Assembly (NCBI GenBank): GCA_037380845.1
Contig: JARRRI010000057.1
Location: 1-28,830 of the forward strand
Reading direction: 5' to 3'
DNA from: Candidatus Sulfobium sp.
GTDB taxonomy: Bacteria; Nitrospirota; Thermodesulfovibrionia; Thermodesulfovibrionales; UBA6898
Length of the DNA stretch: 28,830 bases
The number at the start of each line of letters is the position of its first letter. Position 1 is the stretch's first letter. Positions 15,001 through 27,000 of this stretch are shown piece by piece. The position numbers are program-made.

Positions 15001-18000
15001 AGGAGATCAAACGGATGTCCGCGTCGAAGGTATCGGAGATATGCGCAAGGGATGTAGTTACCGTCGGGCCTGAAACGCCTCTGACCGACATTGCAACCAT
15101 GATGTCCGAAAGGGGCCTTCATCTGTTGCCGGTGGTAAGCGCCGGAAAGCTCGTGGGGATCATAGGAAAGATGGACGTAATAAAAGGGACGGTGGAGTGA
15201 AGCTCCTGAGCGGGAGCAGTGAGGAGACGGAGGAGATAGGTTACAGACTGGGGCGGATCCTTAAGGCGGGTGACGTGGTGGGACTTTACGGCGATCTGGG
15301 GGCCGGCAAGACCACTATGGTAAAGGGTATCGCCAGGGCGTTTGGGATAGACAGGCGCGACGTTACAAGCGCCAGTTTTACCATCATCGCCGAGTACGGA
15401 AGCACTCCGCCCTTCTATCACATCGATCTTTACCGCGTGGGCGAAGGGGAGGATCTGGACAATGCGGGAATATGGGAATGTATCGGGGGGAGGTCGGTTT
15501 CCGTTGTCGAATGGGCCGAGAGACTTGGAAAGCCTCCCGTCAAGGGTTTTATCACGGTAAAAATAGAGGATGGCGGAAAAGAAGACATTCGTGAAATAAC
15601 GATTGAAGGCATAGATGAAAAAGATTGGGATAATCTGTAAACCCGGGAGACCCGAACCCGGAGAGATATTGCGGGAACTTTTGCCCTGGCTGAGGCGCAA
15701 GGGGTATGAGACTTTTGTCGACCGGGAGGCTGCCGGAGCCCTTAATATCGAAGGGTTCACGAGAAAAGAGATCGCTTCCAGCGTCGATGTGGTCTTTGTC
15801 CTGGGTGGTGACGGAACTATGCTCTCGGTGAGCAGGGCGGTCGCGGAGAAGGGAGTGCCCATACTCGGAATCAATCTGGGGAGCATGGGCTTTATGGCGG
15901 AGATCAATAAAGACGAGCTTTATGAGGTAGTGGACGGGATCCTCTCAGGCGACTGCGCGATCGAGGAACGCCTGATGCTGACGGCGAAAATCCGGAGGAA
16001 CGGTGAGCAGATAGCCGGATACACGGTCCTGAACGATGTAGTGATAAACAAAGGAGCCCTGGCCCGGATAATAGATATGGAGACATTCATAAACGGCAAG
16101 TACGTGACCACATTCAAGGCAGACGGCCTTATCGTCGCTACGCCGACGGGTTCTACGGCATATTCCCTTTCTGCAAGCGGACCCATTGTCTATCCCACAC
16201 TGGACAGCATAGTGCTGACCCCGATCTGTCCCCACACTCTTACCAACAGACCGATCCTGCTGCCCCACGATTTCGGTATAGAGATAGTCCTGAGGACCTT
16301 GAGCGAGGACGTGTATCTGACACTGGACGGTCAGATCGGCGCCCCTCTCAGGATGGACGATGTGATAGAGATTGGCCGGGCGGACTATAAAACCAGACTC
16401 CTGATCCCTTATGAGAGAGACTATTTCGAAATATTGCGGAACAAGCTTAGATGGGGAGAGCGGTAGTATGGATGCCGGCAAGGGTAAACGGAGCATAATC
16501 GAGGATCTCAAGTCCATGTTGGAATTCTACGAGGCAATGGGGCTTGAAAAGCTGCCCATCGAACTCAGGGACCCCCCCGGTGAGGCAGGTTTTGTTCCAC
16601 CCGGAAAGGGGAAATCTTTTGTCTCATCCCGGAAGCGCGAGGCCGCCAGCAGCCGGAATTCCGGCGGACAGACTCAACAGGCTGCGGAAAAGGCGGGACT
16701 GCTGAAGGCCCTCAGGGATGAACTGGGAGATTGTGTGCGGTGCAAGCTCTCCGGGGAGAGGAAGAACATAGTCTTCGGCGATGGGAATCCGGGCGCCGCC
16801 CTGATGTTTATCGGAGAGGGTCCGGGGAGGGAGGAAGATATTCAGGGGCTGCCGTTTGTGGGAGACGCGGGCATGCTTCTTAGCAAGCTGATAGAGAAGA
16901 TGGGACTCAAGAGAAAAGATGTGTATATAGCAAATATAGTTAAGTGCCGGCCTCCAGGGAACCGCGATCCGGAAGAGGACGAAGTCGCGACGTGCCGGCA
17001 GTTTATCGATGCCCAGATAGAGATTATAAAACCCCGGGTCATCATGACCCTGGGCAGGATAGCCCTTCAGACCCTGCTCGAAAATCCGCGGCTGAAGATA
17101 TCCGCCGCGAGGGGGAACTTCACTGATTACCGCGGCATCCCGGTTATGCCGACCTTTCACCCTGCCTACCTGCTGCGTAACCCGAGGGACAAATGGCTCA
17201 CCTGGGCCGACGCGCAGAAGGTAATGGAAAGACTGCATATCGGCTGAAGCGGAAATTTTACCTGATCTCGCAGAAACGCGGAAGGAACGCCGAAAAAGTC
17301 TTGTAATAGGGAAGAGATGTGACCTTCTTTGGATAACGCTCCCGCCTCCGGCACCCCCCTCTTAAGATAAGTCGAAGCGACCTTCGCGGGTATCCAGGTT
17401 CTCCTAAGAAAAATGGATTATCGACTATTACCTCGGGAATGACGGCCCATAAGCATTTTCGGGGAGCAATGTTAGTGCCTACCCGCTGGTCAGTCTTCCT
17501 CCGGTACCGGGCTGCGGGATGTGGCCAATATAATGCCCTGTCCGGGACTCAGGTCGTATGAAAAAGGAGACGGCACATCTTCCAGCCGGTTTTCAGGAGA
17601 GATGTCAGTAAGGGGGGTCCCGGTTTGAAAGTATGTCTGAAGGTCGTCGGCATGAAAACGCTGGCTGTTATGGATGTCCTTGTTCAGGATCAGGAGGGAT
17701 TCCTCCTGTGTGTGGCTCGAAGCCTTCCACATCAGCAGCACGTTGCTGTTATCGTAGTGAGGTAATTCCGTGGATGCGTCCTCCTGAAAGATAATGTGGC
17801 CGCTCTTGATCCCGTTGACCGTCTTTATATAATCGGTGAGATCGATGTCCGTCTCCTCCCAGTCTTCCGGCCTCGTCTTTACTACGTGCGGCCTTTTCCG
17901 GAAACCGAACTCGAAGCCCATGGGCATCATCAGTCCTCCCGAAAAGAGGGCAGCGAAGAGATAGCGTTGTTTGAGCCCCTCCACGTTGCCGTTGAGCTCC

Positions 18001-24000: not shown

Positions 24001-27000
24001 GGTAAGCCCTCCTGTTCCATTTAGATGCCCAGACTTTCTTGATGCAGGTCCACGCCTCATCCCAGTTTTCAGGCCAGGGAAGGCCCGTCCCGGTCATAAC
24101 CTCTTTCAGGGCCGCCGCGAGTTCCCCGGGAGATTCAAGATCGAGGATGGTCTCCCGGAGGCTCCCGAGGACCGCTTCGTCGCTATGCCCGTCGTTCTCT
24201 CCAAGCCTGCCGATGAGTTCCCTGCATCGCCTCGAAACGTCCTCATTCTCCCTCATCCCGAGGACCTTTTCGAAAATTCCGAAAGGAATCGCTACCGAGG
24301 CCGGAAGGTATACCCAGTCGGGCACCTTGCCGTGCATCTTTTTGATGTTGTTTGATTTCCCTCCTACAATATCCGCGGTGAAGTCCCCCATCGAAACCGC
24401 GTATTTCGAGAAAGACGGAGCGCGCGGACGGGCCTGGGCAGACCTTTTCGGCGGAGTCTCTCTTTCTTCCCGGGCAGAACCCCGCTCGAACAGTACTTCC
24501 CCGGATGCATTTATTCTGAGAGTGACGGGATTCCCCCCGAGTCTTTTCAATTCGTCAAGCTTCTCAGCGCTGTAGCATACCGCAAAGAGAACGCCGGAGT
24601 TCCTGGCCCTGATTGCCACATGTGCCAGGACGTCCGTCGGATCGGGTGTGACAAGCGCCGAGACACCCTCAGGGATTTCTTCATCTCCCGCCACCTTGTC
24701 CGAAACAATGACGGTTTTCCTTTCGAAGCGTCTGCCCTGGACGGATTTCAGCGAATCGGTCAATTCAACATATCCTCCGGCTTGCCCCGGGCTGATTATC
24801 TGCCAGTCTCCCAGTTCCGCCGCCTTTCTGAGAACCGGGTTTATTTTCTGCAGGAGCATCGAAAGGGCAAAGGCCGGAGTACCGCGTACGACCTCCTCGC
24901 TGAACAGATTGAATGTCCACTCGTCGGCCCGGAAAGCCTTGCCCATAAATTCCGCCTTCGGCTGAAGGAGGCCGTAACAGCGGTCGATAAAGGAACCGAC
25001 GCCCCGGTGAATCCTGTCGATGACGGAATCCGCGTGGAGCGCCCAGTCTCTGGAGAAGCGTTCCGTCGACGCCAGGCGCTTCCAGTGGCGGAGACAGGCC
25101 CTCAGCTCCGCGTTGTCAGCCGAGATGTCCAAGATTTCGAGCATGACTTCTATCGAGTCAGCCAGTTCGTCCCGTCCCAGGCCCTCGGCGAGGTTCCGCT
25201 CCACGACAACACGGGAGTAATCCTCCAGCGCAATGTCCAGGAAGAGAAGGTCCCTTATCCTGTCCGCATGTCCCTTCATCAATCCCCTGATGCGCCTTCG
25301 GCCCTCGACTATCTTCCGGATCAACGGAACCGGCTTCCTGTCATCCCTGTGACGCCATATATGGTCCATCAGCCCGTGCATATCAGGGTCGAAGAGATAC
25401 CTCGCAGAGTGGATGGCCGTTCCCAGGTCGGTGCCGGAATGGACCTCCTTCAGAATACCCAGAAAATGTTCGAAGTCCCCTATCAGGGCGTCCTTAAGGT
25501 GGGGAACAAAGTCAGGATGCGATACGATGGGCCGTTCGTAGCTTTCGAGACGGTCTGTGGAAAGCCCTCCTTCCTCAAGTTTATCGTAGAACCTGTCGAG
25601 GCTTCCGTTGCTCTTCAGGAAAGCGATGAAGGCCTCGCAGATTACTATATCGTCCGGGGTGGCGTTATTGTGGAGCTTCTGGTGCCATTCCTCCATGAAA
25701 TGGCCGGACACTTCCTTGATATGATGGCGGTGCATGATGTTCAGCACTTCGTCCCGCACACGCTGCGCATCGCTACCCCTCCCCAGTGTCCTGAGGATAA
25801 GCCTGATCATTTCCCGGTCTCCGGGTTCGGCGTCATATAGTCCTGCCAGTTTGAGTGTCAGTCTGTCCAGGGCGTGGCCCAGTTCCCGGGGCTTGGTATT
25901 ATAATTGCGCTGCCAGTCGAGCTGCCTGATCGACGAAAAACGCAGCCAGACGAAGATCAGGGCGAGGCCGCCGGTGTTATTCCTCACCCTGTCCAGAAGG
26001 TCATAACAGAGGTTGAAGCGGTGCATCAGTGTCCAGGAGTTGCGCCCCATCTCATGTTCGATAATCTCCTCTGCGATGTCAGACAGTTCCGGACTTCCAA
26101 GTCCTTCCATGCCAGCCGAAATGGTGAGGGGTATGTAAAAATTCCTGTCGCCGTCCTTTATCCATCTGCCGGTGTCCGGTCGGTAAAGGACAAAAGATAT
26201 ACCCGAAGGCGCATCCCCGGATGCGATTCTCAGGGTGAGGCGCAGGAGGCCGTCTTCTTCGGCGAAGGGGGTGCGGACGGCTTTCCTGTCGAAGACCTCG
26301 CTGTTTGCAGGCCGCATCGCCTTCGGCGGCATTTCCCACTCAAACCGCGAACGGACCGAAACGCCCCAATGAAGGAAAAGCGGGCCTTCCAGGTCCGCAG
26401 CCAGACCTGCGAAGTAATTTTCCCCGTCCTTCCAGACCGCAACCGCCAGTTCAGGGCCGTTTTCCAGCCGATACCGGCGCTTATGAAGGACTTCTTCATC
26501 CGGAAGCTCCCTTTCGAGGGCCTCCCCGGGGAGAGGAGAAGTCCTCTCCGCAGGAGGGAGGTCGATCCGGTAATTTCGTCCTCCGTTATTGTCCCACCTG
26601 TCCTCATCGGGAAAGAAAAGCACAAAGTCTATTGCGAAGAGTTCCGGGGAGCGGCCTATGGTGATAAATATCCCTCTTTTTCCGTCGTGTGCCATAAAAG
26701 GAGTCTGAACGGCCCCGTCAAGGGCCGTGGTTCCCTCCGGCCAGACCGACCGCGGGGGAGCCGTCCAGCTGCCGCGTCCCTTTAGTTGCATCCCCCAGTG
26801 GAGAATGCAGTTCTTTTCGCTCTCGATCCGTATGTCTATCCTTACGGCGGTTTCGGTTGCCGACTTGTCCACAGACAGAACTATGTCTTGTTTGCTTACG
26901 AGCGTTTCCATGGGCATAGAGAGGCCCTGCCTTTCGCAGTCATAAATGGGGATGGGAAGGTATTAAACACCCTTCCCTTCATCTCCTCCGTCAAGAGAGA

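Follow-up and report, generated by a model that had tools for sequence, protein, structure and literature searches.

How a bacterium would use two dikinases of the plant starch type, and which enzyme would take their phosphate off again, is the question raised by four genes in a 28,830-nucleotide stretch of contig JARRRI010000057.1 from Candidatus Sulfobium sp. (the window). The source bacterium is a marsh organism. The genes occupy positions 17490-26917, co-oriented on the minus strand and in part overlapping, and the four open reading frames (ORFs) lie exactly where a preliminary description of this DNA had placed them:

17490-18797, minus strand: g02662, compact gene of the GH13 alpha-amylase family, 435 aa (ORF and Pfam)
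18932-20011, minus strand: g02663, TIM-barrel protein (TIM2) of an unnamed family, 359 aa (ORF)
20008-23445, minus strand: g02664, PWD-like dikinase with an N-terminal TIM barrel, 1145 aa (ORF and Pfam)
20020..20934, minus strand: ATP-binding (PPDK_N) domain of g02664, residues 838-1142 (Pfam, 130.5 bits)
21052..21369, minus strand: phosphohistidine domain of g02664, residues 693-798, His753 in LSHLAVRARQ (Pfam, 89.8 bits)
22636..23445, minus strand: TIM1, xylose-isomerase-like TIM barrel of g02664, residues 1-270 (Pfam, alignment, AF2)
23438-26917, minus strand: g02665, GWD-like dikinase, 1159 aa (ORF and Pfam)
24488..24805, minus strand: phosphohistidine domain of g02665, residues 705-810, His766 in LAHVAIRARN (PF22973, 112.4 bits)
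24818..26116, minus strand: GWD central domain of g02665, residues 268-700 (alignment to 9ha9)
26126..26479, minus strand: second CBM45-type (Ig_N_CWD1) domain of g02665, residues 147-264 (best Pfam stretch)
about 26528-26890, minus strand: first CBM45-type domain of g02665, residues ~10-130 (two Pfam stretches)

Because stop and start codons overlap (g02665/g02664 by 8 nt, g02664/g02663 by 4 nt), we read the four genes as an operon, with a gap of 134 nt before the amylase gene. A repeat Pfam search recovered the matches reported earlier for all four proteins. The cluster is probably a module for glucan phosphorylation and turnover. As a full explanation, to which we assign a probability of about 0.45, we propose that the four genes work as a single cytoplasmic module, in which reversible phosphorylation makes storage alpha-glucan digestible.

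Both dikinases proved to be real and full-length, with the phosphohistidine motif kept at H766 in g02665 and H753 in g02664. In g02665, Pfam matched Ig_N_CWD1 (158.9 bits, two stretches), GWD1_pHisD (112.4) and PPDK_N (100.1), giving five domains: two CBM45-type, central helical, phosphohistidine and ATP-binding. The CBM45-type motifs LHWG (residues 39 and 182) and W..N(G)..N[FY] (108 and 252) occur twice, and many bacterial relatives have a single CBM45. Residues 268-700 aligned with positions 12-466 of 467 of the potato GWD1 crystal chain 9ha9 (E 2.5e-87). In g02664, AP_endonuc_2 (80.2 bits, residues 24-262) precedes GWD1_pHisD (89.8) and PPDK_N (130.5), and PF01261, PF01326 and PF22973 were shared by 120/120 listed relatives, many of which carry the JGI auto-name "phosphoglucan, water dikinase." Twelve of these 120 are ~1490-1530 aa long; P0021, the single one compared, has a C-terminal TIM2.

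The amylase, previously labeled eukaryote-debrancher-type, is not specifically of that type. Although g02662 matched hDGE_amylase (88.9 bits) as well as Alpha-amylase (43.1), it covers only profile positions 8-115 of the former (108/439), and among solved structures it comes closest to bacterial alpha-amylases and GlgE rather than eukaryotic debranchers (PDB E 3.6e-17 to 1e-12). The four GH13 motifs were found at DLVINH (95-100), GFRCD with D176, AETLG with E205 and SHD with D260. Its orthologues, 63-86% identical and present in 63/317 genomes of the order, form a tight group linked to GWD.

Relatives of TIM1 are encoded by 186 species genomes at 47-78% identity and, going by record titles, come from no fewer than eight phyla. 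The cluster is real but not confined to Nitrospirota; of the earlier interpretation, the dikinase pair and its alpha-glucan context stand, the C6-then-C3 order and a starch-like crystalline glucan are conjectural, and the Nitrospirota restriction falls together with the debrancher. These loci usually keep the same gene order and often adjoin glgA, a GH57 branching enzyme gene or a glucan phosphorylase gene. Among 80 related loci, the GWD-like gene lay upstream in 57 of the 71 that could be assessed; where at least 6.5 kb of downstream sequence was available (n = 51), the PWD-like and TIM2 genes were both present in 41 and the amylase gene in 35. glgA was found in 21 related loci, the GH57 branching enzyme in 12 and phosphorylase in 7. 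The genome itself has two glgA genes, two GH57 branching enzymes, GlgB, GlgX, MalQ, TreS-maltokinase and two phosphorylases.

Within the order, whose genomes are not phylogenetically independent counts, 84/317 genomes (37/122 genera) had a pHisD match. By hand tally, two pHisD dikinases occurred in 39 of these 84, usually ~3.4 kb apart on one contig, making the pair far commoner than the earlier count of a full-length PWD-like gene in 3 of 60 genomes had implied. The pairing also holds genome-wide: where a PWD-like gene lacked an adjacent GWD, a second pHisD dikinase was encoded elsewhere in 5/5 such genomes. The same hand tally placed pHisD and TIM1 together in 74 genomes, pHisD alone in 10, TIM1 alone in 4 and neither in 229, and TIM2 in 31/39 two-dikinase genomes, 2/45 with one dikinase and 0/233 with none. 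In both one-dikinase genomes with TIM2, the PWD-like gene is cut by contig ends. Occurrence is thus nested, TIM2 being found only where the PWD-like dikinase occurs among the 317 genomes.

Thirteen His, Asp and Glu residues of TIM1 (H75, H109, E140, D172, H175, H201, H203, H205, E206, D210, D212, H214 and E248) are invariant across 45 sequences, including stand-alone forms. In an hhalign comparison with E. coli Nfo (probability 86.8%, E 4.2e-6), H75, H109, E140, D172 and H175 faced Nfo H69, H109, E145, D179 and H182, and H205, D212, H214 and E248 faced H216, D229, H231 and E261. We take these nine Nfo positions to be the trinuclear-zinc ligands of endonuclease IV, and TIM1 has invariant residues at all nine aligned positions. 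The hhalign match to the one-metal epimerase UlaE was about as good (67%), but UlaE offers no partners for H109, H175, H205 and H214. The sole NCBIfam match of TIM1 was the phosphodiesterase CbiR (37.4 bits, cut-off 105; E 1.9e-9). The best structural neighbors (VIA) of its AF2 model (pLDDT 89.8) were MJ1311 (3wqo; Z 25.0) and ASFV AP endonuclease (Z 23.8 and 23.4), ahead of epimerases at Z 22.8 or less, and the alignment with MJ1311 showed an HxHxH...DxH motif in both. MJ1311, for which we know of no function, presumably keeps the nine-ligand set of Nfo. A role for TIM1 as the DNA-repair endonuclease IV was considered and rejected, since the genome has a separate bona fide nfo (221.7 bits). 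The nfo model did not match TIM1. Aligned with the Nfo of this genome, the profile of TIM1 gave a probability of only 25%, over the first five ligands alone.

TIM2 has a set of motifs that parallels that of TIM1 on the same strands, with H73, H106, E140, D168, H171, H235, H237, D238, H240, D252, H253, E302 and H304 invariant. MJ1311 is again its best structural match (3wqo, VIA Z 20.2; AF2 pLDDT 91.6). By sequence TIM2 is more remote, with AP_endonuc_2 at 21 bits (under the cut-off of 31.1), an hhalign probability of 5.8% against E. coli Nfo and no match to this genome's own Nfo in a profile alignment. Ketose epimerases came within 2-3 Z units of the best match for both barrels, and in these models the barrel fold alone does not discriminate a phosphoesterase from an epimerase. 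Natural fusions link the barrels to the other enzymes: residues 1163-1498 of the dikinase P0021 match g02663 with 52% identity (E 3e-119), dikinase-TIM2 fusions also occur at loci L010 and L018, and the amylase is fused to TIM2 in 6 loci and to TIM1 in L074.

The preliminary description had found no glucan phosphatase. Its negative stands for the dual-specificity type, as the DSPc domain had no match in this 100%-complete genome, but it overlooked TIM1 and TIM2, which are the obvious candidates because of their endonuclease-IV-like, multi-metal ligand sets and their phyletic tracking of the dikinases. Tentatively, then, both may be metal-dependent glucan phosphoesterases. By homology, the GWD-like enzyme would grip glucan through its two CBM45 domains, be autophosphorylated at His766 from ATP and transfer the beta-phosphate onto glucosyl residues, and a second kind of phosphate would come from the PWD-like enzyme (His753). 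The GH13 enzyme, we infer, would then hydrolyze the loosened chains. TIM1 and TIM2, as multi-metal phosphoesterases, would take off the glucan-bound phosphate, letting hydrolysis, phosphorolysis and re-synthesis go on. Whether TIM1 acts on the GWD-made ester and TIM2 on that from the PWD-like enzyme, one barrel per dikinase, is doubtful. Counting against phosphoesterases are the closeness of the epimerase fold scores, the low profile probabilities against this genome's Nfo (TIM1) and E. coli Nfo (TIM2), the 10/84 dikinase genomes without TIM1 and the 4 genomes with TIM1 but no dikinase, one of which is 100% complete. Moreover, a kinase fused to a phosphatase acting on one polymer requires position specificity or regulation if a futile cycle is to be avoided.

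Alternatively, though this is rather unlikely, the dikinases and amylase act as proposed while TIM1 is a targeting or phosphoglucan-recognition module and TIM2 is an accessory whose role is unrelated or structural, the phosphate being removed by an unrecognized enzyme or never. TIM1 does stand at the N-terminus, where CBM20 is found in plant PWD; for the dikinase part, the closest named cluster in the Atlas (Streptophyta pHisD/PPDK_N, score 0.97, a lead only) bears CBM_20 on 12% of its members. Because plant PWD requires pre-phosphorylated glucan, according to the available text of PMC12892837, a metal site that binds phosphate might act as a reader; one whole family with GWD-amylase pairs also does without TIM1. 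However, 13 invariant residues in fused and free TIM1 are more than binding usually calls for, TIM1 is also found free or amylase-fused where the PWD-like gene is absent, and TIM2, with a site of the same kind, strictly tracks that gene.

It is improbable that the barrels are instead xylose-isomerase-like isomerases, epimerases, lyases or hydratases working on glucosyl residues or (phospho-)oligosaccharides rather than on phosphoesters. Many of their top fold matches are ketose 3-epimerases, UlaE, the 3-keto-glucoside epimerase YcjR, a 3-keto-glucoside lyase and C-glycoside deglycosidases, and the invariant residues include the E-D-H-E core of such enzymes. Yet TIM1 has invariant residues at all five extra ligand positions that set endonuclease IV apart from UlaE, it is matched by CbiR but by none of the isomerase or epimerase models of NCBIfam, and the 80 loci held no recurrent oxidoreductase able to make a 3-keto sugar.

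We consider it quite improbable that the dikinases act on another polysaccharide or a small molecule, like the rifampin phosphotransferases of the same superfamily: the NCBIfam matches of both are PEP synthase and rifamycin phosphotransferase, but far below cut-off, and g02665 combines a complete GWD central domain with a pair of CBM45-type domains; the tightly linked GH13 gene and the glgA, GH57, phosphorylase and isoamylase neighbors also speak for alpha-glucan. In the literature, GWD counts as a hallmark of eukaryotic starch. Recent transfer from a eukaryote, or contamination, with no adapted bacterial role has a very slight chance, for although lateral transfer has been suggested as the source of GWD in some bacteria (Fig. 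9 legend of PMC6260743), the G+C of the cluster resembles its flanks, the genes are intron-free, overlapping and in an operon with bacterial neighbors, TIM1 relatives reach many phyla at such low identity, and nearly a third of the genera of the order are positive.

Compared with known systems, g02665 has the domain order of plant GWD1/potato R1 (EC 2.7.9.4), namely, CBM45, CBM45, central helical, phosphohistidine and PPDK-type ATP-binding, in agreement with the five-domain layout that the accessible part of PMC13553574 gives for StGWD1. Its central domain matches 9ha9 from one end to the other, and the His motif is conserved. Unlike the plant enzyme, g02665 is operon-encoded and about 230 residues shorter, missing the linker of ~210 residues that separates the two CBMs in StGWD1 (same part of PMC13553574), and it does not retain the redox pair C1003/C1007 close to the catalytic His (LFAVC). 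Plant PWD/GWD3 (EC 2.7.9.5) shares the pHisD and PPDK_N core of g02664, which bears a metal-site barrel in place of the N-terminal CBM20. With GH13 enzymes (3dhu, GlgE, Thermotoga maltosyltransferase and the eukaryotic debrancher's N-terminal portion) g02662 shares the catalytic barrel but not their N- or C-terminal accessory domains.

TIM1 and TIM2 share the TIM-barrel fold of the Nfo/MJ1311/CbiR branch of the AP_endonuc_2 superfamily, in which endonuclease IV and CbiR hydrolyze phosphoesters (portions of PMC7733943 and PMC13443447). TIM1 differs in the extra invariants H201, H203, E206 and D210 and an aromatic-rich AFEWFPD motif, and both barrels sit in a glucan metabolism context rather than among DNA repair or cobamide genes. 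What is new here is the nine-ligand match of TIM1, the parallel motif set of TIM2, the natural fusions, the nested occurrence and the lack of a DSP-type phosphatase; if our proposal is true, the two barrels are the missing enzymes that remove phosphate from glucan. In function they would then be counterparts of plant SEX4 and LSF2, on an endonuclease-IV/CbiR-type scaffold. SEX4, LSF2 and laforin are cysteine-based enzymes of the dual-specificity phosphatase fold, with no sequence or fold relation to these candidate metal-dependent barrels, and share with them only the proposed role, that of taking phosphate off glucan while it is turned over. A pair of enzymes differing in position preference, as proposed here, resembles the contrast of SEX4 with LSF2 portrayed in the available text of PMC12892837.

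Translation of the window returned four minus-strand open reading frames (ORFs) at exactly the coordinates that the preliminary description had assigned to them:

23438 to 26917, minus strand: g02665, GWD-like dikinase, 1159 aa
20008 to 23445, minus strand: g02664, PWD-like dikinase with the N-terminal barrel TIM1 (TIM1-PWDL), 1145 aa
18932 to 20011, minus strand: g02663, the barrel protein TIM2, 359 aa
17490 to 18797, minus strand: g02662, GH13 amylase (AMY), 435 aa

The GWD-like and TIM1-PWDL genes overlap by 8 nt and the TIM1-PWDL and TIM2 genes by 4 nt, and a 134-nt gap lies ahead of AMY. 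G+C across the cluster (0.50 to 0.61) is similar to that of the flanks, where ordinary bacterial genes lie on the opposite strand (upstream, hypF, hypD, hypE, pdxJ, acpS, an NnrE/D-type protein, tsaE, NAD kinase, and a UDG-family protein; downstream, ThiF and JAB proteins). No signal peptide was apparent when the N-termini of the four proteins were inspected by eye; given this and the ATP requirement, the proteins are predicted to be cytoplasmic. Promoter and terminator scans of positions 16800 to 27600 gave counts at the shuffle level (5 versus 4.6 and 15 versus 11.6). DNA nearly identical to positions 17490 to 26917 was present in metagenome runs from marsh and salt marsh; eight rows were flagged as possible sources, and two runs of one further study contained 0.70 to 0.74 of the words of this segment.

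Other features of the window were also recorded. A hydrogenase maturation set on the plus strand (4115 to 8902; hypF of 772 aa, hypD, and a hypE-like AIR-synthase-type protein) has no link to the cluster; a CLP1_P-type P-loop protein (1986 to 3053) lies ahead of it, and a 171-aa DUF6982 protein (8862 to 9377, plus strand; 104.6 bits) sits between hypE and pdxJ. At 27436 to 28799 (plus strand), a ThiF-family E1-like protein is followed by a prokaryotic JAB-domain protein, a pairing typical of ubiquitin-like or sulfur-carrier systems. Positions 1 to 1000 have a G+C of 0.406, clearly below the rest of the window (0.47 to 0.61), and contain a 266-aa ORF without a Pfam match.

A new Pfam search reproduced the domain matches first reported for the cluster proteins. 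The N-terminus of g02665 carries the CBM45-type domain Ig_N_CWD1 (PF23166; 158.9 bits) in two stretches, with the motifs LHWG and W..N..N[FY] twice each; residues 268 to 700 align with positions 12 to 466 of 467 of the potato GWD1 central domain (9ha9; E 2.5e-87), and the phosphohistidine domain GWD1_pHisD (PF22973, here pHisD; 112.4 bits) and PPDK_N (PF01326; 100.1 bits) are also present. This is the five-domain order of potato GWD1, described in the part of PMC13553574 consulted as two CBM45, central helical, histidine, and ATP domains. His766, in LAHVAIRARN, would be the equivalent of potato His992, an assignment made through the Pfam domain rather than by residue-level alignment. The two cysteines placed beside the potato catalytic His in the same source (C1003 and C1007; PMC13553574) are not both kept in the bacterial dikinases, whose motifs read LFAVC and VFAGC.

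The replacement of CBM20 by a barrel in g02664 was borne out: Pfam places AP_endonuc_2 (PF01261) at residues 24 to 262 and finds no CBM_20, and pHisD and the ATP domain are both present, with His753 in the phosphohistidine motif LSHLAVRARQ. The two dikinases share 27% identity over 975 residues, and PWDL matches the potato GWD central domain weakly (E 1.8e-6), so that the GWD-like protein, by sequence comparison, resembles the plant enzyme more than it does the adjacent dikinase. The tentative placement of PWDL in the PWD type rests on the automatic JGI name of many TIM1-PWDL relatives ("phosphoglucan, water dikinase"; NCBI uses "TIM barrel protein"), on the nearest named Atlas cluster, a lead scoring 0.97 (Streptophyta; PPDK_N, GWD1_pHisD, and CBM_20 in 12% of members), and on the Swiss-Prot figure of the preliminary description. 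The 3.18-Mb genome, which is 100% complete, has no pHisD match besides these two dikinases. The combination of PF01261, PF01326, and PF22973 is common to all 120 listed relatives of TIM1-PWDL, drawn from 1564 with E <= 0.001 among 8000 scored candidates.

AMY contains the motifs DLVINH (95 to 100), GFRCD (D176), AETLG (E205), and SHD (D260), which we take to be GH13 conserved regions I to IV, with the Asp/Glu/Asp triad complete; its Pfam PF00128 match scores 43.1 bits. Its designation as a eukaryote-debrancher-type amylase did not hold up: the hDGE_amylase match spans profile positions 8 to 115 of 439 only, rather than the full length, and PDB chains of eukaryotic glycogen debranching enzyme match AMY over ~100 residues at E 4.5e-9 or weaker.

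Scanning one genome per species yielded 186 stretches related to TIM1, 80 of which were kept for locus analysis; all stop-to-stop frames of these loci were translated and searched with the domain pieces of the four window proteins. By record title, the closest relatives belong to Candidatus Sulfobium sp. (78%) and Thermodesulfovibrionales (77%), and further titles name Desulfobacterota/"Deltaproteobacteria," Chloroflexota, Acidobacteriota, Verrucomicrobiota, Candidatus Anammoxibacter, Nitrospinota, and Omnitrophota. A GWD-like gene lay directly upstream in 57 of the 71 loci with at least 1 kb of upstream sequence, and TIM1 was followed by a PWD-type central domain in 62 of the 75 with at least 1.6 kb downstream. 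Where at least 6.5 kb was available downstream (51 loci), PWDL occurred with TIM2 in 41, without TIM2 in 3, and neither was found in 7; TIM2 without PWDL was found in none. AMY was present in 35 of these 51 loci, and among the 48 that also had at least 1 kb upstream it accompanied 32 of 40 with GWD, compared with 1 of 8 without. All five genomes in which TIM1-PWDL lacked an adjoining GWD encoded a second, GWD-scoring dikinase elsewhere. Loci without PWDL had a free TIM1 after GWD, with AMY, a phosphorylase, or an isoamylase-type enzyme often coming next.

The same parts also occur as fusions. Twelve of the 120 listed TIM1-PWDL relatives have the size of a dikinase-TIM2 fusion (~1490 to 1530 aa); in the library protein P0021, residues 1163 to 1498 are 52% identical to g02663 (E 3e-119), and two of the loci (L010 and L018) carry the same fusion. 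TIM2 and AMY share a single frame in 6 loci, TIM1 is fused to AMY in one (L074), and the library protein P0224 combines a TIM2-like part with an amylase fragment. In 5 loci TIM1 has a gene of its own (~308 aa), which intervening genes sometimes separate from the dikinase. Insertions splitting the two genes were seen in some Nitrospirota (L058, 10426 to 16462; L041, 10849 to 13008), that in L058 including a 986-aa Cache/PAS sensor histidine kinase.

Recurrent neighbors of these loci were GT5 glycogen/starch synthase (21 loci), GH57 branching enzyme (12), DUF4912 (12), glucan phosphorylase (7), and GT4 (6); two further recurrent "families" were rejected as antisense shadows of glgA and GH57. Elsewhere, the window genome encodes two glgA, two GH57 branching enzymes, GlgB, GlgX, MalQ, two phosphorylases, and a TreS-maltokinase fusion adjoining a 667-aa GH13. 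The region around this fusion (G000:C3:32500-47800) holds GlgB, the fusion itself (1108 aa), the 667-aa GH13, which is probably GlgE, an 822-aa protein without an NCBIfam match, and MalQ. This cluster is GlgE-pathway-like, and the organism therefore appears to have two routes to alpha-glucan.

Distribution was then considered in the 317 species genomes scanned for the order Thermodesulfovibrionales, cross-tabulated by hand from tables in which kin are not independent. At least one pHisD match was present in 84 of 317 genomes (53 of 219 high-quality genomes; 37 of 122 genera) and two matches in 39. TIM1 (E <= 1e-20) was found in 78 genomes: 74 had both TIM1 and pHisD, 10 pHisD only, 4 TIM1 only, and 229 neither. 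All 33 genomes with TIM2 were pHisD positive, comprising 31 of the 39 two-match genomes, 2 of the 45 one-match genomes, and none of the 233 without pHisD; in both one-match cases contig ends truncate the PWD-like gene. AMY (E <= 1e-80) was found in 63 genomes, 57 of them with pHisD. Two families of the order are exceptions to this pattern, one having GWD in 22/22 genomes, unlinked TIM1 in 21/22, and AMY in 1/22, the other having pairs of AMY and a GWD with one CBM45, without TIM1. Of five genomes with free TIM1 or TIM1-AMY, four encode exactly one dikinase and one encodes none. Homology and operon structure, together with gene order, fusions, and glucan neighbors, make it very likely, at roughly 80%, that the four genes form a cytoplasmic module for glucan phosphorylation and digestion.

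Several individual genomes deserve mention. At one locus (L071, genome G007), TIM1 adjoins a GH13 amylase in a genome without any pHisD dikinase, and order-scan entry G047, which is 100% complete, is taken to be the same genome on the strength of its size and gene positions, which agree. At a locus of the family with GWD-amylase pairs and no TIM1 (L085, G128:C34; 10935 to 12041, minus strand, and 2516 to 4054, plus strand), a calcineurin-like metallophosphoesterase (Metallophos, 53.4 bits) and a glucose-6-phosphate dehydrogenase lie near the dikinase, the former two genes away. The metallophosphoesterase could be a stand-in phosphatase at this one locus; L087 lacks it. In genus g30 (G061, G063, G064, and G066; also G062 and G075), TIM2 matches contain one internal stop (TGA, once TAA) while the open frames are of normal length, and the match probably overruns the stop of the upstream gene.

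AlphaFold models of TIM1 and TIM2 (pLDDT 89.8 and 91.6) are both xylose-isomerase-like TIM barrels. The best VIA-align match of TIM1 was MJ1311 (3wqo; Z 25.0, rmsd 2.8, 241 aligned), ahead of the African swine fever virus AP endonuclease (Z 23.8 and 23.4), ketose epimerases (at most 22.8), and endonuclease IV (21.2 to 21.6); TIM2 also matched 3wqo best (Z 20.2, 238 aligned), with several isomerase-like entries within one unit. Foldseek returned the same mixture, and the modeled fold therefore does not decide the chemistry of the barrels.

Thirteen residues are invariant among 45 TIM1 sequences, free forms included (H75, H109, E140, D172, H175, H201, H203, H205, E206, D210, D212, H214, and E248). 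In the hhalign alignment of the TIM1 profile with Escherichia coli endonuclease IV (Nfo; probability 86.8%, E 4.2e-6, 201 columns), nine of them fall on Nfo H69, H109, E145, D179, H182, H216, D229, H231, and E261, which we take to be the nine ligands of its three zinc ions, reportedly as listed by Hosfield et al. in 1999. The structure paper on MJ1311 is said to report all nine as conserved. A phmmer alignment shows the motif IIHxHxH[ED]N...DxH to be common to TIM1 and MJ1311, which Table 1 of PMC2770678 gives as the predicted Endo IV homologue of M. jannaschii. Use of three Zn2+ and Glu261 by Endo IV is stated in a part of PMC13443447, and PDB titles name H69A and E261Q mutants.

TIM2 has its own invariant set (H73, H106, E140, D168, H171, H235, H237, D238, H240, D252, H253, E302, and H304). 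Its first half aligns with a TIM1-only alignment at 95.1% hhalign probability (112 columns), and in the AlphaFold models its HFHLHD and LE motifs occupy the same strand ends as those of TIM1. Its resemblance to the Nfo site is a parallel motif pattern only, the hhalign link to Nfo being weak. A phmmer search of g02663 against the PDB gave no match (best E 0.99), its Atlas clusters are named "hypothetical protein" only, and PF01261 is reached at E <= 0.01 by only 6 of 47 TIM2 members. The TIM1 profile matched 125 proteins at E <= 1e-30 in a library of 1.84 billion representatives; among the 79 listed of at least 260 aa, 47 contain the PWD central domain and 32 lack it. One library protein of 5557 aa (P0315) has a TIM1-like stretch at 3767 to 3978, scoring 241 bits with the TIM1 profile, and a second, weaker stretch at 3173 to 3330, with no match to the dikinase, TIM2, or amylase pieces. 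The window genome also encodes a third AP_endonuc_2 barrel (255 aa; G000:C3:107700-108900, ORF 305 to 1072, minus strand), ~6.4 kb from one glgA copy, that is CbiR-like (63.7 bits, for a cut-off of 105) and, at E 1e-20, falls outside the TIM1 family.

As multi-metal phosphoesterases, TIM1 and TIM2 would take the glucan phosphate off again. We hold this reading tentatively, at somewhat less than even odds. It draws on the metal-ligand pattern of the barrels, on CbiR as the sole curated family match, on barrel fusions to both dikinase and amylase, on a distribution in which TIM2 is nested within PWDL and PWDL within GWD plus TIM1, and on the missing DSP phosphatase: as first noted, no SEX4/laforin-like enzyme was found, with 0 PF00782 (DSPc) matches in the 100%-complete genome and controls matching in 9 of 14 genomes. 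Plants, moreover, are known to require glucan dephosphorylation, as set out in a passage of PMC12892837. The reading is weakened by the modest profile probabilities, by genomes with a dikinase and no TIM1 or TIM1 and no dikinase, by the futile cycle that a kinase-phosphatase fusion would pose, and by the fold matches to epimerases. With regard to one-metal epimerases, hhalign aligns TIM1 with UlaE (probability 67%) about as well as with Nfo, the E-D-H-E subset of a ketose 3-epimerase/UlaE-type site is present in TIM1, and epimerase fold Z scores lie within 2 to 3 units of the best, but the UlaE partners of TIM1 H109, H175, H205, and H214 are Q/L, N, K, and K. As for endonuclease IV itself, the nfo model of NCBIfam matches neither TIM1 nor TIM2 at E up to 10, the genome has a separate true nfo (221.7 bits), and the TIM1 profile aligns with this genome's own Nfo at a probability of only 25%, over the first five ligands. 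CbiR, a cobamide phosphodiesterase, is the only NCBIfam match of TIM1; at 37.4 bits it falls below the equivalog cut-off of 105, and the TIM1 neighbors are glucan genes, not cobamide genes. Both phosphodiesterases and sugar isomerases belong to the superfamily of CbiR, its members using between one and three metals, according to the part of PMC7733943 consulted. MNIO-type iron oxidases (MbnB; fold match Z 16.7) were set aside, with more than 40 other entries ranking higher and no peptide-substrate context.

The usual teaching is that eukaryotes invented starch phosphorylation. Our full-text literature search for bacterial GWD/PWD, with most subscription journals and book chapters outside its reach, returned no description of a bacterial GWD-PWD operon, of the TIM-barrel fusion, or of a non-DSP glucan phosphatase, which leaves their absence unproven; bacterial GWD/PWD surfaced only in a one-line remark of PMC6260743, where the Fig. 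9 legend includes "other Bacteria" in a GWD tree and says that some could have acquired the gene by LGT. In the portion consulted of a 2026 preprint (bioRxiv 10.64898/2026.09.25.754361), GWD is a hallmark of semicrystalline glucan in eukaryotes, where phosphorylation is strictly tied to it, and the starch-like prokaryotes named are a few cyanobacteria, Clostridia, and some Verrucomicrobia. A figure legend of a 2026 review (PMC13666283) marks as unknown how glycogen becomes phosphorylated.

A broader reading, improbable as a whole, would make TIM1 and TIM2 the first members of a new class of glucan phosphatase that is metal-dependent and non-DSP, TIM1 acting on the GWD-made ester and TIM2 on the PWD-made one; the multi-phylum bacterial pair of adjacent GWD and PWD genes would be the source of eukaryotic starch phosphorylation by one transfer, and its hosts would store a poorly soluble, phosphate-bearing alpha-glucan. 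A rooted phylogeny that includes the operon's dikinases could settle the origin of GWD and PWD. The operon also offers a direct test of whether, and why, bacterial storage glucans are phosphorylated, and, being conserved with both dikinase types, a source of small, intron-free, soluble-expression-friendly enzymes for structural work and starch-phosphate engineering. If the TIM barrels do remove glucan phosphate, they would represent a second, unrelated solution to the job performed by SEX4, LSF2, and laforin.
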